Assembly: GCA_020428995.1 (NCBI GenBank)
Contig: JAGQLW010000017.1
Location: 1 to 33,514 of the forward strand
From: Candidatus Moraniibacteriota bacterium
Lineage (GTDB): Bacteria; Patescibacteriota; Minisyncoccia; Moranbacterales; GCA-2747515
Length of the DNA stretch: 33,514 nucleotides
Reading direction: 5' to 3'
Shown: positions 4,252 through 33,072 of the stretch, in pieces
Layout of the letters: the number at the start of each line of letters is the position of its first letter
Numbering within the stretch: the stretch's first letter is position 1
The notes under the pieces: model-generated
What the model was told of the DNA's origin: nothing
Databases searched by the model: none
The model's input: only the letters and a program-made list of their open reading frames with translations
Program-made: the position numbers and the translations under genes

Positions 4252-4839
4252 ATGAAAGAGCATAATCAGTATCTCATTCCAACAGTGATTGAGAAAACGC
4301 ATTATGGTGAGCGGGCATATGACATTTATTCTCGACTGCTCAAAGATCGTATCATTTTTATTGGTACGCCGATTGAGGATGGTATGGCAAATGCAATTAT
4401 TGCGCAGCTTTTGTTTTTGGAATCGCAAAATCCGGATGAGGATATCAAGATTTATATTAACTCTCCCGGTGGTGTTGTTTCTTCTGCGTTGGCGATCTAT
4501 GACACAATGCAATATGTGAAGCCTGACGTGCAGACGATTTGTGTTGGGTTGGCGGCGTCTGGAGCAGCACTCTTGTTGGGTGCTGGCGCCAAGGGTAAGC
4601 GCATGATTTTGCCAAATGGTGAAGTAATGATTCATCAAGTGATGGGTGGTGCGCAAGGGCAAGCATCAGACATTGATATTCACGCACGACACATTCTCAA
4701 CACGCGAGAGCGATTGAACAAAATTCTAGCAAAACATACAGGGCAAAAGCTTTCCAAAATCGAGAAAGATGTTGATCGGGATTATTTTATGAGTGCTGAG
4801 GAAGCCAAGGTCTATCGCATCGTCGATCGCATCATCTAG
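4252..4839 (+). CDS. clpP: ATP-dependent Clp protease proteolytic subunit ClpP
   Basis: Motifs [25 protein letters not shown] (catalytic Ser context), MIHQ (His) and [10 protein letters not shown] (Asp) are present. The start is set at ATG 4252. Confidence 0.92.
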
Positions 4840-4841
4840 AA

Positions 4842-4961
4842 TTTCTTTATTTTTGGCATATTTCTTCGTCAAGAATTCCGTTGCGCGCTCGCTGTATAAT
4901 CACATACAGCTTGCTGTGCTACTCATTCTTTCCTTGAACTATATCCAAAAAGTAAAAAAAT
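4842..4961 (+). repeat. R-element copy R3
   Basis: It starts 3 nt after the clpP stop. Core is TTTTGGCATATTTCTTCGTCAAGAAT, inner helix AAGAAT/ATTCTT, apical hairpin GCTGTAT/ATACAGC, and 3' end CCTTGAACTATATCCAAAAAG. Confidence 0.7.
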
Positions 4962-4997
4962 TCTACCATCGTATTATTTTTTTTATGGTGTTTCTCA

Positions 4998-5093
4998 GGT
5001 GTTTTTGTTGATGTCTTGCGCTATTCGCTCGACGTATGTTTATATACGTCTCGCTCCGATGCTCGATACTGCCTTGAATTTCATCCAAAAAGC
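4998..5093 (+). repeat. R-element copy R4 (degenerate)
   Basis: The 5' core is GTGTTTTTGTTGATGTCTTGCG, the apical hairpin is GACGTATG/TATACGTC, and the 3' core is GCCTTGAATTTCATCCAAAAAGC. The outer helix is weak. Confidence 0.5.
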
Positions 5094-5096
5094 AAA

Positions 5097-5228
5097 AGAA
5101 TTTTGGTTGATATATTTCTGTGGTGATTTTTTTCTCACTCGCTATATTTTTATATACAGCTTCCGCCAGTTCGGCTTGCATCGAGTTCTGAGTTGAAGCG
5201 GGTAAGACGGGCATTCAAAAAATAAAAG
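5097..5228 (+). repeat. R-element copy R5 (degenerate, carries an M2 sub-module insertion)
   Basis: The 5' core is TTTTGGTTGATATATTTCTGTGGTG and the apical hairpin ends in ATATACAGC. The inserted module is GCTTGCATCGAGTTCTGAGTTGAAGCGGGTAAG (about 5174-5206). The 3' end is ATTCAAAAAATAAAAG. Confidence 0.45.
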
Positions 5229-5297: not shown

Positions 5298-5306
5298 TGG
5301 TATAAT
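5298..5306 (+). promoter_or_regulatory. Extended -10 promoter element TGgTATAAT upstream of recO
   Basis: A perfect TATAAT (5301-5306) is preceded by TG at 5298-5299, about 50 nt upstream of the recO ATG. No well-spaced -35 is present. Confidence 0.45.
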
Positions 5307-6100: not shown

Positions 6101-6105
6101 TTGTG

Positions 6106-6226
6106 AGGGCTTATGTGTTTGGCAAACTTCTTTGTCAAACGCTCTAGTGCTTGACGATGTATTTTTGAATACATTTTACTGTGCTCTTCGCGTTTTCCTT
6201 GAATTTTATTCAAACACATGAGCCCT
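6106..6226 (+). repeat. R-element copy R6
   Basis: It starts 6 nt after the recO stop. Outer helix AGGGCTTATGTGTTTG (6106-6121) pairs with CAAACACATGAGCCCT (6211-6226) with a single T.G. Inner helix is AAACGC/GCGTTT and the apical hairpin is ATGTATT/AATACAT. Confidence 0.85.
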
Positions 6227-8507: not shown

Positions 8508-8542
8508 AATTAAAATTTGTTCTTGCGTGTTTTTTTTGTAGA

Positions 8543-12480: not shown

Positions 12481-12604
12481 CTGGAACTTAAGTGTTTGAC
12501 AAACTCCTGTGTCAAACACTCCAGTGCTCGACGGTGTATATTTATATACACCTTACTCCGCCCTTCGTGTTTTTCTTGGATTTTATTCAAACGTTGAAGT
12601 TCTG
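12481..12604 (+). repeat. R-element copy R8
   Basis: It starts 6 nt after the glyQS stop. Outer arms are 12481-12499 and 12587-12604, with several G.T pairs. A local 10-bp hairpin GTGTTTGACA (12492-12501) / TGTCAAACAC (12510-12519) is possible. Inner helix is AAACAC/GTGTTT and the apical hairpin is GGTGTATA (12533-12540) / TATACACC (12545-12552). Confidence 0.85.
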
Positions 12605-16536: not shown

Positions 16537-16540
16537 TTCT

Positions 16541-16660
16541 AGGAATTATGCGTTTGGCACATTTCTTCGTTAAAATTTCGAAAAATCGACACAATATTAT
16601 ACATATTCCTTACTCTTTTTCTCGATTTTGCCTTGAACTGTACTCAAACGTATAATTCCC
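16541..16660 (+). repeat. R-element copy R9
   Basis: It starts 5 nt after the permease stop and ends 7 nt before the rsmI ATG. Outer helix is AGGAATTATGCGTTTG (16541-16556) / CAAACGTATAATTCC (16645-16659) with one G.T. It is a near-twin of R11 in the core (GGCACATTTCT..GTTAAAAT.TCGAAAAATCGAC). Confidence 0.85.
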
Positions 16661-19765: not shown

Positions 19766-19939
19766 GACCTACATGTTTGACAAACTTCTTTGTCGAACGC
19801 TCCAGTGCTCAACTTTTCGCTCGCGAGTGACGGGTCTCACCGGTGTATGTCTATATACACCTTGTTGTGCTCTTCGCGTTCTTCCTCGCCTCTATTCGAG
19901 TCGAAGCGGGTCGAATTTTATCCAAACGTGAAAGTCTTA
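19763..19939 (+). repeat. R-element copy R10 (177 nt, two internal insertions)
   Basis: The 5' arm TAAGACCTACATGTTTG (19763-19779) begins with the tatD TAA stop itself. The 3' arm is CAAACGTGAAAGTCTTA (19923-19939). The core is near-identical to R13 but has extra segments at about 19813-19838 and about 19888-19912 (M2-like TTCGAGTCGAAGCGGGTC). Confidence 0.8.
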
Positions 19940-20775: not shown

Positions 20776-21664
20776 TTATAGAGATATTGGAGAAAAATCA
20801 ATAATTATTGTTCCAGTGACGTGCAGACAACGGATTGTTGGGAAAAGTTTTTTTTGTGCGGTTTTTGCATGATCAATATTTTCAAAAATACCAATCATTG
20901 TTGATCCAGATCCTGTCATAAAGGATGCGCATGCGCCAGATTGGATTAGTCTAGATTTGATTTGTTTTAATTCTGGATACAGGGTGAATATGTGATTCTC
21001 AAAGTCATTGTGAAGGTGTTGGTATGTTATTGGTTTGTTTTGGTTTAATGTTTCGATTAGTTTTTTTGTAAGAAATACGTTTTGTCCTATTGTTTTATAA
21101 TTTATTGATGAGTATGCGTCTTTTGTGGAGACGCCGAAAAGGGGAAAAATAATTAAGAAGACGAAGCGTGTGTTTGTGTGAATCTTGAATATATCCATAC
21201 CGGCTTCGGAGTCAAACGCGGTTCCGCCATAAAAAAAAATATGGAACATCCATGCCGACCTGTCGTCCGAGAGATTTGATCTCATTTGGTGAAAGAGGAG
21301 TGTTGTAATAATTATAAAGGAGTTTCAAAACTGTCGCCGCATTGGATGAGCCTCCTGCAAGACCTCCTTCAGTAGGTATGTTCTTTTCAATATGAATGTG
21401 TATTGGTTTGGAAGTATTGTATTTCTTTCTAAAAATATCAATAGCTTTTATACAAGTATTTTTGTCATCTGTTGGTATTCGAGGGTCCGAGCAGGTGAGG
21501 GAGTCTTGATCGCTTTGTGTCAGATGTATGATGTCATACAGATCTATCATGTGTTTTATGATGCCCATTTCGTGGTATCCAGAATGTGGACTGTTGGTGA
21601 TCTTACGGATGATATCTGGGGAAAGCGTGATTCGTGCGTATGACTTTTCTTTAATTGTTTTCAT
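20776..21664 (-). pseudogene. ispE: 4-diphosphocytidyl-2-C-methyl-D-erythritol kinase (IspE), split by a frameshift in a T9 run
   Basis: The N-terminal ORF 21212..21664 carries the GHMP motif PTEGGLAGGSSNAA and ends ..GMDVPYFFLWRNRV*. The C-terminal ORF 20776..21285 reads ..FFYGGTAFDSEAG... and carries TGSGSTMIGIF. The two frames join at the homopolymer at 21231-21239. Confidence 0.75.
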
Positions 21665-21782
21665 GGCCGTATGAGATCATGCAAATAACAGAAATACCTT
21701 CACCTTTTCCACTTTTCCACATGCGGTGAGACCGTCACCGCTGGTTGCTGTATGCCGATCAATTTTTCTGAGAGATTGAGTA

Positions 21783-22937
21783 TTAGTGCGATATTTTTTT
21801 TATTTGTACGAATGATTTTTCGAGTTTTGGTCGTTTTGCTTCAATTGAAATCGACACATTGTTTATAGTGATATTTTTCTTTCTGAAGATATCTTTGACG
21901 TGTTTTACGTATCGCGTGCTATCGTTGATTCCTTGTTGATTCATTTCTGTGGCGTATACGCCGAGTGATCCTGTGCCACAGGCACTGCCGAGAGTATTGC
22001 ATAGTGCATGAAGAACAGCGTCACCATCTGATTCTCCGTCTAGGATTATTTCGTCTGAAAAAACCAGGCCGCCCAGAATTAGCCCTTTTTTTTGTTTTGC
22101 TGAAACGGTGGGAGTCCTGACCAATTGCAACGTATGTCGTGTGTTCTTTTTAATTAAAGTCTGAAAAATGATTAAATCTTCGGGGGTAGTGACTTTGAGG
22201 TTATCATAAGATCCTGGTGAGACACTAACATTAACACCAGTATTTTCAAGTAATGACATGTTATCGGTCCCAACGAATTTTTCTTTGATAGCTTTTTGAT
22301 GACACTCCAAGAAGGTTTGTTTGGAGGCGATTTGTGGTGTTTGAATGTGCCACAAGTTTTCACGTGGCATTGTGCTTGTTACTTACATCTTTTTATCTGT
22401 TTGTTTTATGGTGTCTTTTACTGGAACTGCTAGGGTTACACCCTCATTTTCTTTTAATGTTGATAAGGCGTTGTTGATGTCTTTTGGGTGTACGAAGGGT
22501 TGTGCGCCATCGTGGATCATGACAATGCCGTCGTTGGCTGCGTGTACACCAGTATACGAAGATTTTTGACGTGTGTCACCTCCTGTGAGTATATGGCGTA
22601 CTTTGGTGAAGGAGTGTTTTTGTACTAGATTGTGGAAAGTTTTTTGATCGTTTTTGTTTACAGTATACGAAGATTTTTGACGTGTGTCACCTCCTGTGAG
22701 TATATGGCGTACTTTGGTGAAGGAGTGTTTTTGTACTAGATTGTGGAAAGTTTTTTGATCGTTTTTGTTTACTACGAGTATGATGTTGTTAACATACTTG
22801 CGTTGTTCAAAGATGTTAATGGTGTAGTATATGAGTGGTTTTTTAAAGCTGTACAGTAGTTTGTTGTAGTCAAGACCCATTCGTGCGCCAGCGCCTGCAC
22901 ATAGAATTATGGCTGTTATGTGTTCATATGATTTCAT
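21783..22937 (-). pseudogene. ispDF: Fused IspD/IspF (MEP cytidylyltransferase / MEcPP synthase-like) gene, interrupted by an in-frame TAA and carrying a 111-bp tandem duplication
   Basis: The IspD N-terminus reads ITAIILCAGAGARMG. The frame reads ..VPVKDTIKQTDKKM-TAA-VTSTMPRENLWHIQTPQ.., continuous apart from the stop at 22383-22385. The C-terminal part is IspF-like (LILGG....ESDGDAVLHAL) but lacks expected metal ligands and ends early. Confidence 0.65.
22551..22772. repeat. Perfect 111-bp tandem duplication (2 units) inside ispD
   Basis: Unit 22551-22661 is repeated identically at 22662-22772. This duplicates 37 codons in frame (VNKNDQKTFHNLVQKHSFTKVRHILTGGDTRQKSSYT twice). Confidence 0.95.
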
Positions 22938-23157: not shown

Positions 23158-23510
23158 TGAGTGCTGATGTGGTTTATGATCGGAGGCCTATTTCTGATCT
23201 TGGTGAATCCGTCCGGCGCACGATTATTGATCGTGCGTGTGAATGGGTGATCCGTCATTGTTATGGTGGGCATCTCCCGTCGCATGTTTCTGTTTCTCAT
23301 GTTTTTTTGGATGAGAGTTATGGTTTGCGTGAATATGAGGCTGCTTCGCGTGATATTCTCTTCGTGTTCGCTGTTTTTAATAGTGCTCTTTATTCCGTTC
23401 GTGTGATTCATGGTTTTGGGTGTCCTTGGGATGATTCCTCGTTTTCTGTCAAAAAGGTTGGCGCATCGTTTCAGGTGTCTGATTCTGTTAATGACGATGT
23501 TCCTGCGTGA
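23158..23510 (+). CDS. Hypothetical protein (117 aa)
   Basis: The ATG at 23158 is preceded by GGAGG (23146-23150) at 7-nt spacing. Codon and amino-acid composition match the other + strand genes. I recognise no family motif. Confidence 0.5.
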
Positions 23511-23586
23511 TTTTTTTTCAATGTTGCCAAGTGTAAAAAACGGTGCTATGATTAGTACCGTTTTCATTTACTTATTTTTTTTTCTT

Positions 23587-23898
23587 ATGGGGACAGATCT
23601 TGATGAAATTATTGTTGCAGAGAAAGAAGCGCAAAAAATTGTTGATGAGGCACGTGAGAAGGCTCGTTCTTTGACAGAGGGGGTACGTTCTTATTATGAG
23701 CAAGTATCTCAAAAGAATTTGTCTGAGTTGCGCTTGGATCGCGAACGTGTTTTTTCTGAGCAAGATAAAAAATTGTCTGATGAGAAGGAGGCTGTGATTT
23801 CTCAGTGGAACAGTCGACAAAAGGTGATTGTTGACGGTGCAAATAATCGTCGTGCTGACGCGCTTTCTGCGTCAATGCGTGTTTTTTTTAATGAATAG
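23587..23898 (+). CDS. V/A-type ATPase small coiled-coil peripheral-stalk subunit (G/H-like)
   Basis: 103 aa, highly charged and helical (IIVAEKEAQKIVDEAREKARSL...). It lies immediately upstream of subunit I, as ahaH/atpG does in A/V operons. The start is set at ATG 23587. Confidence 0.5.
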   Translation: MGTDLDEIIVAEKEAQKIVDEAREKARSLTEGVRSYYEQVSQKNLSELRLDRERVFSEQDKKLSDEKEAVISQWNSRQKVIVDGANNRRADALSASMRVFFNE

Positions 23899-23916
23899 TT
23901 TTGATTTTGTTGCCCT

Positions 23917-25875
23917 ATGATGCTGGACATGCAAAAAATTCGTCTTCTTGTACACCACGATGCTTCTTTGCGAGTGATGTCTGTTGTGCAGAAATTGGGT
24001 TTTGTTGAATTGACTCGTGTTGACAACAAGGAACTTTCTCGTCGACAGAAGAGTGATTTTGATTTGAATCATGAAAGTGCATTATTAGATTTTGCTGTTG
24101 CATTTCTCACTCCTTTTTTTCAGCCATCTGACAAGGTGCAGTACATGCTTACTGGTGGACGATTTATTACGACACACAAAAATATTTCTCAATTATGGGA
24201 GAAGTTTGATTACTCATCTGTTTTGTCTTCGGTTGAGAAATTGCAATCTTCTTTTTACAAAAACAGTGCAAGTCAAAAAGATGTGGAGGCGAAAAGGAAA
24301 CAACTTTTGCCATGGGTTGGGTATCCTGGTTTGCTTGATGTTCCTCGTCAGACGCGACTGACACGCACTGTTTTTTTGCTTGCTTCTTCAGCACGATCTG
24401 TTTCTGGCAATCAGGATTTTGCAAAAATGTTGCTCCAGATTCTTTCTTCTTCTGGATGTGTGTTTCATTTTGTTCGTGTGAGCCCTAGTGCTGTTGTTGT
24501 GACGTTTCTGTCTGGTGACGCGTCTGTTTTTGAAAAGTTTTTTTCTGATTCTGTTTTTGATATTGTCGACCTTCCTGTTGTTTCATCTTCTGTTTCAGAG
24601 GCTCTTTTGTCTTGTGACCGTGATTTGCAACAATTGATTCGTGAAAGGTCTTCTCTTGAAAAAGAGGTTCGCTTGTTGGCGCGCAATCTTCCACAACTAC
24701 AAGCACTTAGTGACGACGTATACTGGAAGAAGTCTTGTCACAATGTTATATCGGGATCGTGGGCAACACATTCGGTTGATGTCTTTGAAGGGTGGATTCC
24801 TGTGTCTGCGCGTGATGCTTTTGTAAAGGCTTTGAAGCGTGTAACGCCGTATTTTTCTTTGGAGAATATCGCTCCAGATGATGAAGAGCAACCCCCTGTT
24901 GAGATTGTGAATACAAAAGCGGTTTTGCCTTTTGAGTCGGTGACTCGTTTGTATGGTTTGCCTGGAAGTAAGGATTTGGATCCCACTCCGTATCTTGTCG
25001 GTTTTTTTCTCATTTTTTTTGGTTTGTGTTTGACTGATGTGATCTATGGTATCGTACTCAGTACCATTACTGGGTATGTTTTGTGGAGGTACACTGTTTC
25101 AAAGGAAACGAAAGCGTTGTTATCAGTTGTGTTTCTGGGAGGTATTGCGTCGTTTTTCATTGGTCTATTTTTTGGTGGTTATGCTGGAATTGATATGGCT
25201 TCTATGCCGTCATCTTTACAATTTCTCCAATTGTTTGATCCTGTAAAGGATCCAATAGCTGTTTTTCTGCTAGCACTCAGTTTTGGTGTTGTGCATATTT
25301 TGACTGGATTGGTTTTGGGTATTATGCGTCAGGCACAACAAGGTCTTCTTGTGGATGGTCTTTTGTCTCATGGCTCATGGATTGTTGTTCTTCTTTCATT
25401 GGTTTATTTTGCTTTGGAGCAGGCAGGTATTTTTGGTTTAGCTATTGGTGGATCGTTGGTGATTGGAGCGTTTGTTTTTTTAGTGTTGGCTCAGGGACAT
25501 CGAGAGAAGACTGTTGTTAAAAAAGTACTTACTGGTTTGGTGAGTCTGTATGATAGTGTGGGGTATTTTTCAGATTTGCTGTCGTATTCTCGTCTAATGG
25601 CGCTTGGACTAGCAACGAGTGCATTGGCGTTTGCGATGAATTTGGTTGCCGAATTGGTGTCTGGTGTTCCGTATGTTGGAAACGTAATTGCTGTCTTAGT
25701 GTTGATTGTTGGGCATACGTTTAATATTGCATTGAATACTCTTGGAGCGTTTATTCATAGCGCGCGGTTGCAGTTTGTGGAGTTTTTCGGCAAATTTATT
25801 ATTGATAGTGGGCGTGTTTTTGCCCCTTTTCATCGAGAGGAGCGTCATGTGATTATTCGTGATGATGTTTCTTAG
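23917..25875 (+). CDS. atpI: V/A-type ATPase subunit I (a-subunit, stator/proton channel)
   Basis: 652 aa. It has a soluble N-terminal half and a polytopic C-terminal half with the conserved Arg context LLSYSRLMALGLA. Confidence 0.85.
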   Translation: MMLDMQKIRLLVHHDASLRVMSVVQKLGFVELTRVDNKELSRRQKSDFDLNHESALLDFAVAFLTPFFQPSDKVQYMLTGGRFITTHKNISQLWEKFDYSSVLSSVEKLQSSFYKNSASQKDVEAKRKQLLPWVGYPGLLDVPRQTRLTRTVFLLASSARSVSGNQDFAKMLLQILSSSGCVFHFVRVSPSAVVVTFLSGDASVFEKFFSDSVFDIVDLPVVSSSVSEALLSCDRDLQQLIRERSSLEKEVRLLARNLPQLQALSDDVYWKKSCHNVISGSWATHSVDVFEGWIPVSARDAFVKALKRVTPYFSLENIAPDDEEQPPVEIVNTKAVLPFESVTRLYGLPGSKDLDPTPYLVGFFLIFFGLCLTDVIYGIVLSTITGYVLWRYTVSKETKALLSVVFLGGIASFFIGLFFGGYAGIDMASMPSSLQFLQLFDPVKDPIAVFLLALSFGVVHILTGLVLGIMRQAQQGLLVDGLLSHGSWIVVLLSLVYFALEQAGIFGLAIGGSLVIGAFVFLVLAQGHREKTVVKKVLTGLVSLYDSVGYFSDLLSYSRLMALGLATSALAFAMNLVAELVSGVPYVGNVIAVLVLIVGHTFNIALNTLGAFIHSARLQFVEFFGKFIIDSGRVFAPFHREERHVIIRDDVS

Positions 25876-26117
25876 GGTTGTGTTTTGGTGTTTTTTTATC
25901 TTTCTTTTGAGTCGGGAAAGGTGCGAAAACATTGAAGCGGAACAATGTTTCTGACGCTTCTCGTTTATTGATTTAAATAATGTGTAATTAAGTAATTGTT
26001 TGCGGGTATGTGCATTTTGTATGACTTGAGAGATGCTGGTAAAAATTTTTTATTTTTTACCTATTTATTTATCTTATTGAGTTGTATCTCTAATGAACAT
26101 ATTTCGTATATTATGTT

Positions 26118-26600
26118 ATGACGGATGTATTTACGGTAGGTCTTGTGTTTGCGGGTGCTGGCATTGCAGCGTCTATGACGTTTGTAGGTAGTGCAATTGG
26201 TATGGGTATTGCTGGTCAGGCTGGTGCTGGTGTTGCGTCTGAGAAGCCACAACTGTTTGGTAAAATCCTTGTCCTTCAGGTGCTTCCTGGTTCTCAGGGG
26301 ATTTATGGTCTTGTTGTTGCTGTGTTGATTCTGGTCACTGCCGGTGTGATTGGTGGTGGGGAGGGAACTTCTGTCTTGACTTTGTCTCAAGGATTTCAGT
26401 ATTTTCTTTCTGGGTTTCCTATTGGTTTTGCAGGATTGGTTTCTGCGAAACTTCAGGGAATGGTTTCTGCCGCAGGTATTGCCATGATTGCTAAAGATGA
26501 GTCGCTTGCAGGTCGCGCAACAACACTTGCTGTTATGGTTGAGACGTGGGCGTTGTTTGGTCTTTTGGTGAGTGTGTTGTTGGTACTTTTTGCTGCGTAA
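26118..26600 (+). CDS. atpK: V/A-type ATPase subunit K (duplicated 4-TM proteolipid c-subunit)
   Basis: 160 aa with four hydrophobic helices and Gly-rich TM1 and TM3. The LPGSQGIYG (TM2), SAKLQG (TM3) and MVETWALFG (TM4) motifs are present. The only membrane carboxylate is Glu142. Confidence 0.88.
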   Translation: MTDVFTVGLVFAGAGIAASMTFVGSAIGMGIAGQAGAGVASEKPQLFGKILVLQVLPGSQGIYGLVVAVLILVTAGVIGGGEGTSVLTLSQGFQYFLSGFPIGFAGLVSAKLQGMVSAAGIAMIAKDESLAGRATTLAVMVETWALFGLLVSVLLVLFAA

Positions 26601-26622
26601 TTTTCTGTTTCGTAGAAAGCAG

Positions 26623-26744
26623 CAGGACTTACGTGTTTGGCACATTTCTGTGTTAAAATCTCGAAAAATCGACGCAATATTGTATATATTCCTTACGATT
26701 TTTCTCAATTTTGCCTTGAACTGTACTCAAACACGTAAGTCCTG
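26623..26744 (+). repeat. R-element copy R11 (between atpK and atpE)
   Basis: A perfect 17-bp outer helix joins CAGGACTTACGTGTTTG (26623-26639) and CAAACACGTAAGTCCTG (26728-26744). Inner pairings are ACATTTC/GAACTGT and GAAAAATCG/CGATTTTTC, and the apical hairpin is AATAT/ATATT. Confidence 0.9.
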
Positions 26745-26804
26745 AAACCTGAAGGATGTGTGTTGGACACAAGTCTTAATTTTCTGTTTTGTTAATGTTA
26801 ATTT

Positions 26805-27374
26805 ATGGCTCTTAAGGATATTACTGAAAAAATTCTTTCTGATGCTCGTTTGGAAGCTCAAAAGATTGTTGATTCCTCAACGGTTTTTGTTGAAGAGGAA
26901 CATAAGCGTGTTGATGCGCGTGTGTCTGTTGAGGAGAGTGATTATCGATCTGAGACAGAGCATATGTTGGCAGACCGTCGCACGGTTTTTTTTTCTCGCT
27001 TACAACAAGAACTTCAGTTGGATTTGCAGACAAAAAAGCGGGCAATTGTTGAGGGTGTTTTTGCAGATTTGCGCTCCTCACTTTTGGAAAAGGCATCGTC
27101 AGATTATGCTTTGTGGTGTCGTTCTTGTTTGCGTTCTTACGATGGTGAAAATAGTGTGAGCATGGTTGTTCCGGTTGGCATGTCTGCTGTTGCTCGGGAT
27201 GTTGTTAAAGAACTCGGTAAAAATTTTTCTGTTGTTGAACGCAACGATGTTGTGACTGGATTTGTTCTTGAGGGGGAGAATTTTGTTGGGGATTTTTCTG
27301 TTGAGCGTTTGCTGGATGAGCGTCGCAAAGAAGTGGAGGTTGTTGTTGCTGGTGTTTTGTTTGAGAATGATTAG
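26805..27374 (+). CDS. atpE: V/A-type ATPase subunit E (peripheral stalk)
   Basis: 189 aa. It has an N-terminal long helix (ITEKILSDARLEAQKIVD) and a globular C-terminus. Its operon position is after K. Confidence 0.75.
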   Translation: MALKDITEKILSDARLEAQKIVDSSTVFVEEEHKRVDARVSVEESDYRSETEHMLADRRTVFFSRLQQELQLDLQTKKRAIVEGVFADLRSSLLEKASSDYALWCRSCLRSYDGENSVSMVVPVGMSAVARDVVKELGKNFSVVERNDVVTGFVLEGENFVGDFSVERLLDERRKEVEVVVAGVLFEND

Positions 27375-27403
27375 TAAATTATGTTTCTCTTGTTGCTGTT
27401 ATT

Positions 27404-28393
27404 ATGACAACTGAGTTTGACTTACAATATACGTATTCTGCTAGTCGTGCGAAGGCTCTTGAGTCTGAGCTTTTGAATGAGAACCAACTCGAACGTTTGG
27501 TTGGTGCAAAGGACATGTCAGAAATTACTATGGTACTTCAGGATACTTTTCTGTCTGATTTATTGCCGTCTGGTGGTGCATCTGTTTTTGATCTCTCACA
27601 TCTTTTGCGTAAGAGTTTGTCTCGTGCAAAGCAAACGATTTCTTCTATTGCTCCTGATCCTGCAATCTTGGATGTCTTGTGGTTGCGATATGATTATTAT
27701 AATCTCAAGACGATTGTGAAGGGGAGAAGGGCAGGTCTTTCAGACGAGGAAATTATTGAACGATGTTTTTTTGCTGCAAAGTATGATCCGCGAGTTCTTT
27801 TAGATTATGCATCTACTGGTCGTTTGGGGAATTTGCACAAAGAAATGTCTGTAGCGTATGAGAAGGCATTAGAGTCTTTGACGGTTTATGGTATTGATGT
27901 TTTGATGAATCGTGGTTACTTTATTCATGTTCGCAAGTGTGCTGTTGTCATTGATAATGAATTTGTGAGTGACTATGTTGCTTTTTTGACGGATTTCTTC
28001 AATCTTCAAGCACAACTTCGTCTTGTTACTTTGCGTCACTTAACTGTTCCGGAAGCATTCATCCAGGGTGGTCGGTTTACTCCTTCTGATCTTGATTCGG
28101 TTGAGAAGATTTATGCGGCTTTTGAGACGTTTGGTGATGCATTTTTGTGGACTGAGGCGATTGCACGTCATCGTGATCGTGGGGAATACCTTTTGCTTCA
28201 GAAGGTTATGGATGATTATGAGTTGAAGTTTGTTCAGGAGCATGGTCGTAGTATTTTTTCTTTTGTTCCATTGTTTGCTTTTTTCATTGCGCGTCGGAAT
28301 AATCTTCAGATCGTTCGTACTATTGTGACAGCAAAGCAGGCTGGTATGGATGAACGGGATTTGCGTGTCATGTTACGTCGTCTTTATGCATAA
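27404..28393 (+). CDS. atpC: V/A-type ATPase subunit C (d-subunit, central socket)
   Basis: 329 aa and all-helical. It begins ..YTYSASRAKALESELL, typical of AtpC. Its operon position is between E and F. Confidence 0.75.
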   Translation: MTTEFDLQYTYSASRAKALESELLNENQLERLVGAKDMSEITMVLQDTFLSDLLPSGGASVFDLSHLLRKSLSRAKQTISSIAPDPAILDVLWLRYDYYNLKTIVKGRRAGLSDEEIIERCFFAAKYDPRVLLDYASTGRLGNLHKEMSVAYEKALESLTVYGIDVLMNRGYFIHVRKCAVVIDNEFVSDYVAFLTDFFNLQAQLRLVTLRHLTVPEAFIQGGRFTPSDLDSVEKIYAAFETFGDAFLWTEAIARHRDRGEYLLLQKVMDDYELKFVQEHGRSIFSFVPLFAFFIARRNNLQIVRTIVTAKQAGMDERDLRVMLRRLYA

Positions 28394-28410
28394 AACCGTA
28401 AAAATATTTT

Positions 28411-28758
28411 ATGTCTAATCGTGTTGCTATTATTGGTCCTCAAGATGTTGTGTCGGGTTTTTCTGCTGTTGGTGTGATTGCGTTTGTTGCTAACACCAGT
28501 GCTGATGTGATGCGTCTGTTGGAGGAATTTTCTCGTTCATTTGAGTCTTCCTTGGATTCAGAGATCGACCGTTACCCCGTTGTGATTGTTATGGAGGAGT
28601 TGCTTAAGGATATTCCTCAGGATGAGTATGCTCGTGTTACGCGACATGTCTTGCCAGCTGTGGTTGCCTTACCGGGTTTGTCTGGTTCATCTGGATATAC
28701 GTCGGAACGACTTCGAGCATTGGCTCAGAGGGCTGTTGGTATTGACATTTTCTCCTAG
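28411..28758 (+). CDS. atpF: V/A-type ATPase subunit F
   Basis: 115 aa with the N-terminal motif VAIIGPQDVVSGFSAVGV. It lies immediately upstream of A. Confidence 0.8.
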   Translation: MSNRVAIIGPQDVVSGFSAVGVIAFVANTSADVMRLLEEFSRSFESSLDSEIDRYPVVIVMEELLKDIPQDEYARVTRHVLPAVVALPGLSGSSGYTSERLRALAQRAVGIDIFS

Positions 28759-28760
28759 TG

Positions 28761-28884
28761 TCAGGAATAACGTGTTTGGCGCATTTCTTTGTTAAGAGCT
28801 GTGGTGCTCGACATCGTATATAACATACAGTTTACTTCGCTCCTCGCTCTTGCCTCGAACTGCACTCAAACACGTTATTTCTGA
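28761..28884 (+). repeat. R-element copy R12 (between atpF and atpA)
   Basis: It starts 3 nt after the atpF stop. Outer helix TCAGGAATAACGTGTTTG (28761-28778) pairs with CAAACACGTTATTTCTGA (28867-28884) with one G.T. Inner helices are GCATTTC/GAACTGC and AAGAGC/GCTCTT. Confidence 0.88.
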
Positions 28885-28963
28885 AAGTATTTAGATTTTA
28901 TATGTTTTGCTGATGATGTCTTTTTGACTTATTTATAATTACTTATTTTTTTGGATTTCTCTT

Positions 28964-30739
28964 ATGGATACGAATGTACAAATAGGCACAATTGTACGTG
29001 TCACAGGACCTCTGGTTAAGGCATCTGGTATGCATAATGCAAAGATGTATGAGCTTGTTAAAGTCTCAAGCGAAAAATTGCTTGGTGAAATTGTTGAACT
29101 TAATGGAGATATTGCTTCCATTCAGGTTTATGAAGATACTGCTGGTGTGCGTCCAGGAGATATTGTTGAACGAACAGGTGAGACGATGAGTGCTGAGTTA
29201 GGACCCGGTCTTTTGGAATCTTTTTATGATGGTGTTCAGCGTCCACTTAAGGTCATTCAGGAAAAATCAGATAGTTATTTTATTGCACGTGGTATTGAAG
29301 CGCCTGGTTTGGACCGGGAACGAAAGTGGGATTTTGTCTCCCGCGCGAAAGAAGGTGATGTTGTTTCCGGAGGGGATGTTTTGGGTGTTGTTCAGGAGAC
29401 AACATTGATTGAACATCGTGTCATGGTTCCTCCATATGTGTCTGGTCGGGTTGGGAAAATTTCTTCTGGATCATTTACTGTTTTGGATATTGTCGCTGAG
29501 ATTGTTTCTGAAGATGGTCAGACACATAAAATTTCTTTGATGCAACGTTGGCCGATCCGACGTCCGCGACCTTCACAGGGAAAACAATTTCCCAAGACGC
29601 CACTTGTTACGGGTATGCGTATTCTTGATACTTTGTTTCCTGTTGCCAAGGGAGGTGCAGCAGCAATTCCTGGTGCTTTTGGTACAGGGAAATCAGTGAC
29701 TCAGCAATCTTTGGCAAAATACTGTGATGCACAGGTTATTGTCTATATTGGCTGTGGTGAACGTGGTAATGAAATGACAGAAGCTGTGACGGAATTTCCT
29801 GAGTTGATTGATCCAAACTCTGGGGAACCTCTTATGAAGCGCACAATTTTGATTGCAAATACGTCGAACATGCCTGTTGCTGCTCGTGAAGCATCTGTGT
29901 ACACAGGAATTACAATCGCTGAATATTATCGTGACATGGGATATAGTGTCGCATTGATGGCTGACTCGACATCTCGTTGGGCAGAAGCAATGCGTGAAAT
30001 GTCTGGTCGACTTGAAGAAATGCCAGGCGAGGAAGGTTACCCTGCGTATTTGGCCTCGCGTACGGCTGAGTTTTATGAACGTGCTGGTGTTGTGACATGT
30101 TTGGGTGCTGACAAGCGTTCAGGTGCTTTGACTGTTGTTGGTGCTGTGTCTCCTGCTGGTGGAGATCTTTCCGAGCCAGTTTCACAGGCAACACTTCGTG
30201 TGACAAAAGTGTTTTGGGGGCTTGATGCTTCGCTTGCGTATAAGAAACACTTCCCATCGATTAACTGGCTTACTTCGTATTCTTTGTATACAGATAACTT
30301 TGGTGAATATTGGGCAAATAAGATTGCTGAGGATTTTTCTTTATTGCGTACATTGGCCATGGATTTGCTTCAGCAGGAAGCCAAGTTGTTGGAAATTGTG
30401 CGTCTTGTTGGGCAAGAGGCGTTGTCAAACTCAGAGAAGCTTGTCTTGGAAGTGTCCCGCATGCTTCGAGAAGACTTTTTGTTTCAGAATGCTTTTGATC
30501 CAGGAGATGCTTACACTTCTCCACAGAAGCAGTATGGTATTTTGAAATCAATCTTGACGATTTATCTTTCTGGAAAGGATGTTGTTTCTTCTGAGGATTT
30601 TGATTTTTTACAGCTTCGAAGTTTGTCTTGTGTAAAAGATGTTTCAACGCTTAAGACTTTTTCTGGGGATGATCTTGATGGACAATATGATGAGTATCAA
30701 AAACGAGCTGTGAAAGAATTGTCTGGACTTGCTCACTAG
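28964..30739 (+). CDS. atpA: V/A-type ATPase catalytic subunit A
   Basis: 591 aa. It carries the Walker A motif GAFGTGKSV, the A-subunit-specific non-homologous insertion after the N-terminal barrel, and GERGNEM and SRWAEA motifs. Confidence 0.95.
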   Translation: MDTNVQIGTIVRVTGPLVKASGMHNAKMYELVKVSSEKLLGEIVELNGDIASIQVYEDTAGVRPGDIVERTGETMSAELGPGLLESFYDGVQRPLKVIQEKSDSYFIARGIEAPGLDRERKWDFVSRAKEGDVVSGGDVLGVVQETTLIEHRVMVPPYVSGRVGKISSGSFTVLDIVAEIVSEDGQTHKISLMQRWPIRRPRPSQGKQFPKTPLVTGMRILDTLFPVAKGGAAAIPGAFGTGKSVTQQSLAKYCDAQVIVYIGCGERGNEMTEAVTEFPELIDPNSGEPLMKRTILIANTSNMPVAAREASVYTGITIAEYYRDMGYSVALMADSTSRWAEAMREMSGRLEEMPGEEGYPAYLASRTAEFYERAGVVTCLGADKRSGALTVVGAVSPAGGDLSEPVSQATLRVTKVFWGLDASLAYKKHFPSINWLTSYSLYTDNFGEYWANKIAEDFSLLRTLAMDLLQQEAKLLEIVRLVGQEALSNSEKLVLEVSRMLREDFLFQNAFDPGDAYTSPQKQYGILKSILTIYLSGKDVVSSEDFDFLQLRSLSCVKDVSTLKTFSGDDLDGQYDEYQKRAVKELSGLAH

Positions 30740-30837
30740 ATCTTAATTGTTAATGAAATTATAAATTGTAGCAGATCATTTGTGTTTTCCTTGTGTTTTC
30801 CTTGGTTGTGCAAATGGTGTCTTGCGTATCATATTTT

Positions 30838-32217
30838 ATGAAAGAGTATAAAACAGTACAATCAATTTCCGGCCCCCTTGTTGTTGTGGAGGGTGTTTCT
30901 GGTGTTGCTTATGATGAACTTGTTGAGGTTTTGGTTCCTGGTGAAAAGGCGCCACGACTTGGGAAGGTTCTTGATGTGTCGTCTGATCGTGCTGTTGTGC
31001 AGATGTTTGAACCAACATCTGGCACACAGACAGCTGATACGCGCGCACGTTTTACAGGTCAAGCGCTTAAGATCGGTGTTTCTACGGATTTGTTGGGGCG
31101 TATTTTTAATGGTAAGGGGGATCCAATTGATAATGGTCCTGCTATTATTCCTGAGAAACATCTTGATATTAGTGGCGCACCAATTAATCCATGGAGTCGT
31201 CAGTATCCGAATGATTTTATTCAAACGGGTGTTTCATCATTAGATGTCATGAACACGCTTGTGCGTGGTCAGAAGTTGCCAATTTTTTCTGGTGCAGGAT
31301 TGCCTCACTTAAAACTGATGGCGCAAATTGCGCGACAGGCGAAGGTAGCTAGTCAGTCTGGTGATGAATCTGGTTTCGCTATTGTTCTTGCCACACTTGG
31401 ATTGCCGTTTGAAGAAGCAGAATATTTGCGTCATTCACTTGAAGAGTCTGGTGCTTTGGAGCGGGCAGTGGTTTTTTTGAACACAGCTGCTGATCCTGTT
31501 GTTGAGCGTATTGCTACACCGCGTATGGCGTTGACCGTCGCGGAGTATCTTGCGTTTGAAAAGGGAAAACACGTTTTGGTTATCCTTGGTGACATGACAA
31601 ACTATTGTGAGGCTCTTCGTGAAGTCTCTGGTGCTCGTAAAGAAGTTCCTGGTCGTCGTGGTTTTCCAGGGTATATGTATACTGACCTTTCGACAATTTA
31701 TGAACGAGCAGGGCGGTTGAAAGGGTGTGAGGGAACGATTACGCAAATTCCGATTCTTACCATGCCCGATGATGACAAGACTCATCCAGTTCCAGATCTT
31801 ACGGGGTATATTACTGAAGGGCAGTTTATTATTTCTCGTGAGTTGTTCAAAAAAGGCGTGACGCCACCGGTTGACGTGCAGGGTTCGTTGTCGCGTCTTG
31901 CGGGTTCTGTTCAGGGGAAGCGTACTAGAGAAGACCATGCGCAAGTGAAAGATCAGTTGTTTGCGTCATATGCTTTGGGGCGTGATGCACGTGAGTTGGC
32001 TGTTGTGTTGGGTGAATCTTCTTTGGATGAAGTTGATTTGGCACACATTGCGTTTTCTGATGCGTTTGAGCGAGAATTTATTTCGCAAGATGAGTCAGTG
32101 GATCGATCATTGGAAGAATCTTTGGATTTGGGGTGGAAGCTTTTGGCGATGTTGCCACAGTCTGCTCTTAAGCGCGTGAAAGCTGAAATGATTGAGAAGT
32201 ATCTTCCTAAGAAGTAG
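30838..32217 (+). CDS. atpB: V/A-type ATPase non-catalytic subunit B
   Basis: It begins [19 protein letters not shown] and carries [24 protein letters not shown]. The start is set at ATG 30838, because the track ORF begins at an upstream GTG. Confidence 0.93.
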
Positions 32218-32220
32218 CTG

Positions 32221-32345
32221 TCAGAACTGACGTTTTTGGTAAACTTCTTTGTCGAACGCTCCAGTGCTCACCGGTGTATGTTTGCATACACCTTGTTGCG
32301 CCCTTCGTGTTCTTCTCGAATTTTATCCAAACACATCAGTTTTGA
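32221..32345 (+). repeat. R-element copy R13 (between atpB and atpD)
   Basis: It starts 4 nt after the atpB stop. Outer arms are TCAGAACTGACGTTTTTGG (32221-32239) and CCAAACACATCAGTTTTGA (32327-32345). Inner helix is GAACGC/GTGTTC and the apical hairpin is GGTGTATG/CATACACC. Confidence 0.85.
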
Positions 32346-32388
32346 AATTGTTTGATCTCATTTTGTTTTATTAATTATTTTTTGTGAT

Positions 32389-33012
32389 ATGTCTTTGAAA
32401 GTTAGTCCAACACGAATCAATCTTTTGAATTTGCGTAAAGAACTGCGTGTCGCTGAACGCGGGTATAAGCTTTTGAAAGATAAGCGTGATGGTTTGATGA
32501 AAAAGTTTATGTCCGTTACTCGTGAGGCACGACTGCTTCGTCAAGATGTTGAGAAGCGTCTTGGTAGTGCTTTTTCTAGTTATGTGCGTGCTTCGGCGAT
32601 GATTCCAAAACCGGTGATGGATAATGCTTTTTTGTTGCCAAATGCTAATGTTTCTCTTGAAGTTTCTACAAAAAGTGTTATGTCTGTTGCAATTCCTCAG
32701 TTTACAGTTTCCAAGGAAGGCGTTGCTTTTTCGTATGGTTTTTTGGAAACGACAGGTGATCTTGATGTTGCCGTGGCGGCTTTTGATGATGTCTTTGTTG
32801 ACGTTGTTCGATTGGCAGAATTGGAAAAAACGGTTGAAAGATTGGCAATTGAGATTGAAAAAACACGTCGTCGCGTGAGTGCTTTGGAATATGTGCGTAT
32901 TCCGAGTTTGGCGCAGACTATTCGTGTGATTGGGATGCAGTTGGAAGAGCGTGCACGTGATGCTGTTGTGGCAACGATGCGTGTCAAAGCAATGATTGAA
33001 GCGAAAGGATAG
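32389..33012 (+). CDS. atpD: V/A-type ATPase subunit D (central rotor stalk)
   Basis: 207 aa. It carries VSPTRINLLNLRKELRVAERGYKLLKDKRDGL and the C-terminal helix TRRRVSALE. Confidence 0.9.
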   Translation: MSLKVSPTRINLLNLRKELRVAERGYKLLKDKRDGLMKKFMSVTREARLLRQDVEKRLGSAFSSYVRASAMIPKPVMDNAFLLPNANVSLEVSTKSVMSVAIPQFTVSKEGVAFSYGFLETTGDLDVAVAAFDDVFVDVVRLAELEKTVERLAIEIEKTRRRVSALEYVRIPSLAQTIRVIGMQLEERARDAVVATMRVKAMIEAKG

Positions 33013-33034: not shown

Positions 33035-33072
33035 AAAAATAGAGGCATCTATAGATGCCTCTATTTTTTTTG
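33035..33072 (+). terminator. Rho-independent terminator closing the ATPase operon
   Basis: An 11-bp perfect stem ATAGAGGCATC (33039-33049) / GATGCCTCTAT (33054-33064) has loop TATA. It is flanked by an A-run upstream and T8 downstream. Confidence 0.85.

Follow-up and report, generated by a model that had tools for sequence, protein, structure and literature searches.

Within a 33,514-nt stretch of DNA from a Candidatus Moraniibacteriota bacterium (contig JAGQLW010000017.1), three copies of a long palindromic element lie between genes of a V/A-ATPase operon, at the K|E, F|A and B|D junctions. Are these elements placed where they are to serve the ATPase, as a preliminary description of the sequence proposed, or do they belong to something more general? 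Our analysis of the whole stretch (hereafter, the window) and of related metagenomic loci favors the second answer. Our main reading, to which we give a probability of roughly 0.55, treats the ATPase elements as unexceptional copies of a dispersed ~123-nt hairpin repeat found in Parcubacteria, a family that behaves like the non-autonomous palindromic repeats ERIC, Correia and REPIN/BIME. If the element has a function at all, it is probably a generic one, as a hairpin that closes a cistron on its 3' side.

Element copies in the window

The preliminary description of three well-formed copies at these junctions was upheld: the sequences are homologous, match both covariance models that we used and form stable folds. 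Model R1, which was built from nine window copies, places the three at 26622-26743, 28761-28882 and 32221-32343 (117-126 bits, E = 1e-28 to 6e-31), and model R2, which was built from metagenome copies only and is therefore independent of the window, gives them scores of 101-114 bits. Each copy forms one long imperfect hairpin (−44 to −45 kcal/mol), and 0 of 200 shuffled sequences fold equally well. The atpK|atpE element (26622-26744, + strand; R1 116.7 bits, R2 101.5 bits; fold −43.9 kcal/mol, z = −7.3) starts 21 nt past the stop codon of atpK, and 60 nt separate its end from the ATG of atpE. The atpF|atpA element (28761-28884, + strand; R1 125.8 bits, R2 113.6 bits; fold z = −4.7), which is identical in contigs L001-L005, starts 2 nt past the TAG of atpF, with 79 nt from its end to the ATG of atpA, and the atpB|atpD element (32221-32345, + strand; R1 120.5 bits, R2 101.9 bits; fold z = −6.3) starts 3 nt past the TAG of atpB, with 43 nt from its end to the ATG of atpD.

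These three copies are part of a larger set. A repeat search combined with R1 and R2 identified 9 full and 2-3 decayed copies in the window, all on the + strand, at a density of about one copy per 3 kb; those outside the ATPase cluster are not covered by the coordinates in the preliminary description. The other full copies lie upstream of nusA (268-392; R1 113.7 bits, fold z = −6.3), after ppa (2676-2800; R1), where the basal stem takes in the TAA that ends ppa, after clpP (4838-4962; R1 and R2), with the clpP TAG inside the stem, after recO (6104-6226; R1 134.4 bits), after proS (12481-12603; R1 125.2 bits) and after the gene for an AI-2E transporter (16539-16660; R1), where the next, rsmI-like gene starts 8 nt downstream; the last of these copies is 89% identical to the K|E copy. 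Both R1 and R2 also detected a decayed copy after clpP (4977-5101), a possible partial copy that follows it (~5114-5187 or beyond) and a decayed copy with internal insertions after tatD, between convergent genes (19767-19935). The cluster at the 3' end of clpP (4838-5225), with intact, decayed and partial copies in tandem, resembles the clustered and nested repeats of other bacteria. With both models, scores on the − strand are ~70-90 bits below those on the + strand, and the element therefore has a definite polarity.

Placement in the V/A-ATPase operon

The division of the operon by the elements into the segments H/G, I, K; E, C, F; A, B; and D, as originally proposed, is borne out by Pfam matches, gene position and tblastn. 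The accompanying claim, that the placement is set by the stoichiometry of the ATPase subunits, was not supported. An element is present at 10 of the ~24 co-directional gene ends in the window, and junctions within the operon are occupied at the same rate as those elsewhere (3/8 vs. 7/16, Fisher p = 1). The stoichiometry of the V/A-ATPase is A3B3, D, F, C/d, E2-3, G2-3, I/a and K/c ~10-12, such that 6 of the 8 operon junctions part subunits of unequal copy number, and of the 56 ways to choose three junctions at random, 20 give three such junctions. The partition seen here, moreover, joins I (1 copy) with K (~10), and E (2-3 copies) with C and F (1 each). Thus, given the occupancy, the odds under random placement and the mixed groupings, the placement gives no evidence of design.

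The same operon in related genomes had been pointed to as a check on the claim, and no element was found, with either model, in 80 related ATPase loci (1.39 Mb) from the candidate phyla radiation (CPR). In the closest relatives, the K|E, F|A and B|D junctions span 1-15 nt, 8-44 nt and 1-24 nt (98 nt in L009), respectively, compared to 204, 205 and 171 nt in the window. The compactness of the related junctions and the absence of the element from them indicate that the operon was ancestrally compact and that the three elements, together with their spacers, are lineage-specific additions. A further long spacer, between atpI and atpK (25876-26117), consists of 242 nt of non-coding DNA and holds no element; long I|K spacers are common in related CPR operons (median ~99 nt, maximum 403 nt).

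These results bear directly on the view that the elements are intercistronic RNA hairpins selected by the host, that is, barriers to 3'-exonucleases or sites for RNase III or RNase E, which segment the stability or translation of the mRNA and tune the ratios of the ATPase subunits. Under this view, it is fitting that A and B stay together and D is set apart. However, the placement within the operon is indistinguishable from the window-wide rate or from a random choice of junctions, the I+K and E+C+F groups mix stoichiometries, and the related operons are compact and free of the element. We consider host-selected hairpins of this kind to be rather unlikely, with features of structure and position, given below, on both sides.

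Distribution of the family

A strict two-box pattern matched 6 window copies and at least 120 metagenome loci from groundwater, lakes and other sites, and in the 80 of these loci that were kept, the covariance model gave 94 hits, with a GC content of 23-56%. The flanking proteins assign the hosts to Moranbacteria (NusG) and Campbellbacteria (EF-Tu, EF-P), i.e. to Parcubacteria. Comparison of the whole window with Rfam 15 yielded no match at E ≤ 1, and neither known RNA families nor tRNA-like genes were found in it; no description of the element was found in the literature searched for CPR, Parcubacteria and Moranbacteria. Among 2.9 million viral contigs, there was 1 pattern match (IMG/VR contig L216, 5427-5524), and this contig may be a misclassified CPR fragment or a phage carrying a copy. 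Integron attC sites were considered as a possible identity of the element and rejected: the boxes 5' GTTTGG...CCAAAC 3' have the opposite polarity to RYYYAAC...GTTRRRY, the pairing continues outside the boxes, and the flanks are housekeeping genes.

Structure and covariation

The whole unit of ~123 nt is a single long imperfect hairpin. The conserved core of ~100 nt, from TTTGG to CCAAA, has internal loops with fixed motifs (TTCTTYGT in the 5' arm, CCTYGAAY in the 3' arm) and GTA...TAC at its apex, all of which are kept also in copies that lay outside the pattern selection. Clamping this core, the outer stem (10-13 bp) varies fast in sequence and yet always remains self-complementary; the termini of this stem conform to T-Y-A-G-R...Y-C-T-R-A, and the consensus element ends are TTAGGACTT...AAGTCCTAA. 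Copies at unrelated loci can have cores (~100 nt) that are 93-95% identical and yet quite different outer stems (10-13 bp), each self-complementary. Some copies carry an extra GC-rich mini-hairpin, e.g. CCCGCCAAAGGCGGG and CCTGCCGGCAGGCAGG, in the 5' or the 3' arm, which brings their length to ~143 nt (L165 2527-2668, L214 9277-9419, L206 9526-9668).

In the alignment of the 94 metagenome hits, 89.9% of the cells are paired, double-sided changes occur in 36 of the 38 pairs, and the covariation score is 0.62, compared to 0.18 for shuffled and 0.06-0.11 for slid partners. Outside one position, G.T/T.G combinations (64) and A.C/C.A combinations (126, or 97 when one apex pair is left out) stand against ~3000 Watson-Crick pairs. 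Such near-pure Watson-Crick pairing is unusual for a structure selected solely as RNA, and the finding that G.U is no more common than A.C, which is not the usual trace of RNA selection, counts against RNA hairpins maintained by the host. The one position that departs from this is the pair bordering the TTTGG box, which on the sense strand is G.T in 42 cases, G-C in 38 and A-T in 11, the reverse never being seen. This exchange of G.U, G-C and A-U on the sense strand only, along with the conservation of asymmetric internal loops, is in favor of host-selected RNA hairpins; the pair itself is compatible with a sense strand that folds, be it RNA or single-stranded DNA.

The almost purely Watson-Crick covariation, with no excess of G.T, also speaks for a different possibility, namely, that the element acts as a DNA structure. 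Under this explanation, a single-strand hairpin or a cruciform would serve an HUH/Y1 transposase (RAYT or IS200/IS605-like) or another DNA-binding factor, the orientation of the copies would follow the replication strand, and the link to genes would be secondary. We regard this as quite improbable.

Position relative to genes

Of 49 cases with a co-oriented gene upstream, 44 have the stop codon of that gene at −13 to +5 nt relative to the start of the element; at the mode of −4 to −5 nt, the stop codon falls within the basal stem. The stop codons at the elements are TAG (28), TAA (24) and TGA (7), and the upstream genes are unrelated to each other (tuf, nusG, rplK, gyrB, rpoC, clpB, efp, mraY, lepA, lexA-like). 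Unlike the 5' end, the 3' end shows a broad spread of distances, both to the next start codon (3-394 nt) and to a convergent stop codon (0-300 nt). Between co-directional genes, the sense orientation strongly prevails (33 vs. 5 antisense). The bias toward the sense strand and the anchoring at stop codons are compatible with a constraint linked to expression, and both are points in favor of RNA hairpins selected by the host.

In 45 of 56 loci, the element lies on the G-rich strand, which would also fit a DNA structure, but the directions of replication and transcription are confounded in these data, and ORF (open reading frame) calls are unreliable in skewed genomes. Similarly, the left end of the element adjoins a short conserved xTAG/TAA, comparable to the targets of IS200/IS605 and the GTAG tag of REP, although the anchoring persists when the element end is TCAG and the stop codon is 2-3 nt upstream.

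Gain and loss between related genomes

An element is present between nusG and rplK in six related Moranbacteria (L096, L100, L123, L206, L210 and L212; NusG 84-96% identical to that of L096). L214 (NusG 86% identical) is without the element at this junction; instead, the rplK stop codon is followed directly by a copy that is lacking in the others. The nusG|rplK gap of L214 (8690-8790) contains a shorter hairpin, with TTTCTTCGAAA at its center, which is probably an internal-deletion remnant of the element. The filled site in L214 (...AAAACTAG[element]AAAACTTAG...) and the empty one in L212 (...GAGAAATAG...) could reflect a duplication of 8-9 nt, the stop codon being among them. The secE leader carries an additional copy in L206 but just a 9-bp hairpin in L210; upstream of secE, these two loci (L206 9440-9530, L210 2250-2330) share a conserved TTGACA-17-TATAAT promoter, after which come a small AGCCGAAAGGCT hairpin and a T-run that may be a leader or an attenuator. 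In the more distant Moranbacteria L207, L208 and L209 (NusG identity 75-81%), no copy was found in 16-20 kb. Altogether, presence and absence at orthologous sites were seen at nusG|rplK, at the end of rplK and in the 5' region of secE (L096, L206, L210, L212 and L214, with L207, L208 and L209).

Copies that are 90-95% identical have flanks at random identity, and decayed, nested and tandem copies are seen in the window. The presence/absence pattern, the remnants and the near-identical copies indicate that members of the family are gained, lost and decay on short timescales, and that single copies can persist with their pairing intact. Variation of junction occupancy among close relatives, which corresponds to the outcome that the preliminary description had named as refuting its view and indicating neutral insertion, was indeed found, albeit at nusG-rplK in Moranbacteria rather than in the ATPase operon. 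This turnover is a further point against host-selected hairpins and one in favor of a transposition-related DNA structure.

Terminators, promoters and read-through

A terminator scan confirmed the single canonical terminator reported for the ATPase cluster as the only strong one there; it lies after atpD (33035-33068, + strand) and consists of a 15-bp stem followed by a T-run. Other clean terminators of the hairpin-plus-U type are found at 8540 (+), 14076 (+) and 19990 (−), at gene ends that are free of the element. The 3' flanks of the elements are A-rich or mixed, with no U-tract, so that they do not conform to the definition of an intrinsic terminator, and inside the elements, the scan matches the apex hairpins of two copies (321-339 and 19842-19861) and never the whole element. 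The absence of a U-tract and the use of canonical terminators at other gene ends lend indirect support to the initial notion that the elements are not simple terminators.

Promoter matches provide similarly indirect support for co-transcription of the elements within one operon. The best sigma-70-type match for the cluster is at 23524-23552 (+ strand; TTGCCA-17-TATGAT with a TG extension, a consensus match only), upstream of all three elements, and no extended −10 match of similar quality is found in the spacers after the ATPase elements. Strong boxes of the TGGTATAAT type precede recO and a DUF11 gene and follow atpD, and extended −10 boxes, TGGTATAAT or TGGTATACT, were observed at 5298, 6487 and 33092. 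A promoter inside the element was also considered and rejected, the matches being idiosyncratic (e.g. TTGCCT-17-TATAAT in the 16539 copy), with no conserved promoter.

In principle, the elements could be unconventional terminators, lacking a U-tract or dependent on a factor, each with its own promoter after it, in which case the apparent operon would be four transcription units. Elements and canonical terminators (8540, 14076 and 33035 on the + strand, 19990 on the − strand) do occupy different gene ends; at junctions with an element in the window, 43-120 nt of additional AT-rich spacer are present; operons classically have a boundary at nusG|rplK and at tuf|rpsJ; and strong TGGTATAAT boxes follow the clpP and recO copies. 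However, the elements lack a U-tract, none of the three ATPase spacers offers a good promoter match, a plain hairpin terminator needs no conserved asymmetric core, and the 16539-16660 copy ends 8 nt before the next ATG, a distance that is often 3-20 nt in other genomes. We find this explanation highly doubtful. Where the next start codon is only 3-20 nt past the element, read-through is forced, a circumstance that also agrees with host-selected RNA hairpins. In the ATPase operon, read-through with formation of an intercistronic hairpin is likely, judging from the sequence.

Comparison with known palindromic repeats

In its general properties, the family resembles MITEs (transposable elements of miniature size with inverted repeats): the copies are dispersed with unrelated flanks, the whole element is an imperfect palindrome (in which the outermost 10-13 bp differ), and presence and absence alternate at orthologous sites. 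It does not resemble REP/REPIN in the features that define them, namely a unit of 20-40 bp, an unpaired GTAG/CGTC tag and inverted doublets, being ~123 nt long with paired T-Y-A-G-R termini; REP-like pairing within an arm is unsupported by covariation, including where the TTTGG box changes.

Among individual families, ERIC/IRU of Enterobacteria and Yersinia, which are imperfect palindromes of ~127 bp, are like the element in length and in forming one long palindrome. They also share its location in transcribed intergenic regions and at gene 3' ends, a copy number that varies between lineages and sequence conservation across genera. There is no sequence similarity between the two, the host phyla differ (the element being found in CPR), and the element stands apart by its strong sense bias, the anchoring of its 5' end at stop codons and the combination of a conserved core with a variable outer stem, whereas the TA duplication of ERIC/IRU is not seen for it. 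ERIC at gene 3' ends can change the decay of the upstream mRNA (PMC10969869). Correia/NEMIS elements of Neisseria are likewise dense, MITE-like palindromic repeats that differ in presence between strains; they are co-transcribed with their neighbors, and their hairpins are cleaved by RNase III (PMC10969869). Their fixed terminal repeats of 26 bp, TA duplication, IHF site, built-in promoters and predominant location upstream of genes have no counterpart found in the element.

The GTAG-tagged REP/BIME/REPIN, which are mobilized by RAYT, share with the element a position downstream of ORFs, between co-directional or convergent genes, and long-term vertical persistence combined with duplication. 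Their terminal (G/T)TAG often donates the TAG stop codon to the upstream ORF, and head-to-head dimers form larger hairpins (PMC3733652). They differ in consisting of two REPs of 20-40 bp with a free tag, whereas the element has ~123 nt, a complex conserved core and a paired tag; that the element is far longer and more complex than REP also argues against its being a DNA substrate of this type, and no RAYT was found in a crude search. As a comparison of working mode only, the intercistronic RNase III sites of phage T7 are sense-oriented, irregular hairpins with an asymmetric internal loop, as the element is. These sites are much shorter and are not a dispersed, mobile repeat family. Cleavage at the T7 sites leaves a protective 3' hairpin on the upstream message, and REP stabilizes upstream mRNA segments. 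The precedent of REP, ERIC and Correia counts in favor both of our main reading and of RNA hairpins selected by the host.

Interpretation

On our main reading, copies duplicate to new sites and are lost again on short evolutionary timescales, and those that persist are almost solely sense-oriented, with the 5' end at, or a few bases from, the upstream stop codon. The sequences show family membership, the structure with its covariation, the anchoring, the bias in orientation, the lack of the element in related operons and gain and loss among relatives, whereas the mechanism of mobility, co-transcription and any effect on mRNA are inferred. The ATPase elements would be insertions into an ancestrally compact operon, RNA polymerase would read through them to produce stable intercistronic hairpins, and any effect on the stability or processing of mRNA segments would be a generic by-product of the family rather than a design for subunit stoichiometry.

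Several observations weigh against this account. Across four nusG|rplK copies that appear to be orthologous, 12 of the 36 pairs have changed on both sides with pairing kept, and such compensatory changes are in line with RNA hairpins under host selection. Together with the conservation of the core loop motifs over genomes of 23-56% GC, these changes suggest selection at individual sites, i.e. a host function, for which a purely selfish element would have no need. Standard transposition explains neither the near-identical paralogous cores with differing self-complementary outer stems nor the combination of anchoring at the 5' end only with a strong sense bias. A search for an HUH...Y..NP pattern found none among 1513 ORFs in 545 kb of element-bearing loci (a crude search, in incomplete genomes), which also counts against a DNA structure serving such a transposase, and the target-site duplication is suggested by one filled/empty pair only, with nothing clear around the window copies. 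As for the ATPase operon itself, the nearest AtpA outside the same strain is 73% identical, contigs L001-L005 are 100% identical to the window, and gain and loss were seen at nusG-rplK, not at the ATPase junctions.

The restriction of pairing to Watson-Crick combinations is a further feature that a dispersed repeat does not explain, alongside the anchoring, the sense bias and the differing paired outer stems. These features leave room for single-strand-DNA transposition and for a cistron-end module that is selected by the host and coupled to the ribosome. Such a module of 'mRNA punctuation', maintained by Parcubacteria hosts, would have its core recognized by a conserved protein or RNase; the terminating ribosome would unzip the outer stem at the stop codon and free the 3' arm just upstream of the next start, so that termination would be coupled to cistron-specific processing, protection or re-initiation across operons. 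The module would spread by duplication and be kept by selection at each site. We deem this scheme unlikely.

Gene content and other features of the window

Nearly every gene in the 33.5-kb window is on the + strand. The V/A-ATPase gene cluster (23410-33012, +; Pfam and tblastn order in relatives) encodes, all on the + strand, an H/G-like subunit (23410, or ~23605, to 23898; weak Pfam hit) and subunits I (23917-25875), K (26118-26600), E (26805-27374), C (27404-28393), F (28411-28758), A (28964-30739), B (30793-32217) and D (32389-33012), each supported by Pfam except for E, which has no Pfam hit and was assigned by its position and by tblastn matches at the K-C position of relatives. The gene order H-I-K-E-C-F-A-B-D prompted us to consider an archaeal origin with TATA-box promoters; this was ruled out, the window encoding NusA, trigger factor, ClpP, RecO and Tgt and the MAG being assigned to Moranbacteria by NCBI. 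Housekeeping genes in the rest of the window include nusA, ppa, tig, clpP, recO, tgt, proS, pepA, metG and tatD.

The GC skew is very strong (+0.12 to +0.34) and uniform across the window (1-33514), and the AT skew is negative; this combination produces long spurious antisense ORFs. No recognizable Shine-Dalgarno sequence precedes any gene in the window, and the regions upstream of the starts are T-rich; a comparison of Shine-Dalgarno sequences between junctions with and without the element is therefore uninformative. In NusA (500-2113), the N-terminal domain matches a 119-position profile over residues 40-219, which implies a large insertion, and the NCBI gene call for the nusA product is 505 aa compared to 537 aa for the ORF. 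The genes of the methylerythritol phosphate pathway (20776-22937, − strand) seem fragmented: the ORFs for the N- and C-terminal domains of ispE overlap (21212-21664 and 20776-21285), and ispD and ispF are split at 22370/22383 on the − strand. These could be pseudogenes or assembly errors. The ispD-like ORF (22383-22937, − strand) contains a perfect in-frame tandem duplication of 111 nt, or 37 codons, at 22550-22771.

Implications

The apparent punctuation of the ATPase operon should not be taken, from placement and without transcript data, as a mechanism of subunit stoichiometry. To our knowledge, gene regulation is almost unknown in CPR bacteria, which have tiny, compact genomes and are not cultured alone. 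Here, a family that is dense, widespread and strongly covarying, that sits on stop codons and that is not in Rfam is either an unrecorded mobile repeat that shapes operon architecture in CPR genomes or a general signal of the cistron 3' end. Either way, the element breaks assemblies, the same-strain contigs being just 3-6 kb long, and its annotation should precede the inference of operons in these genomes.

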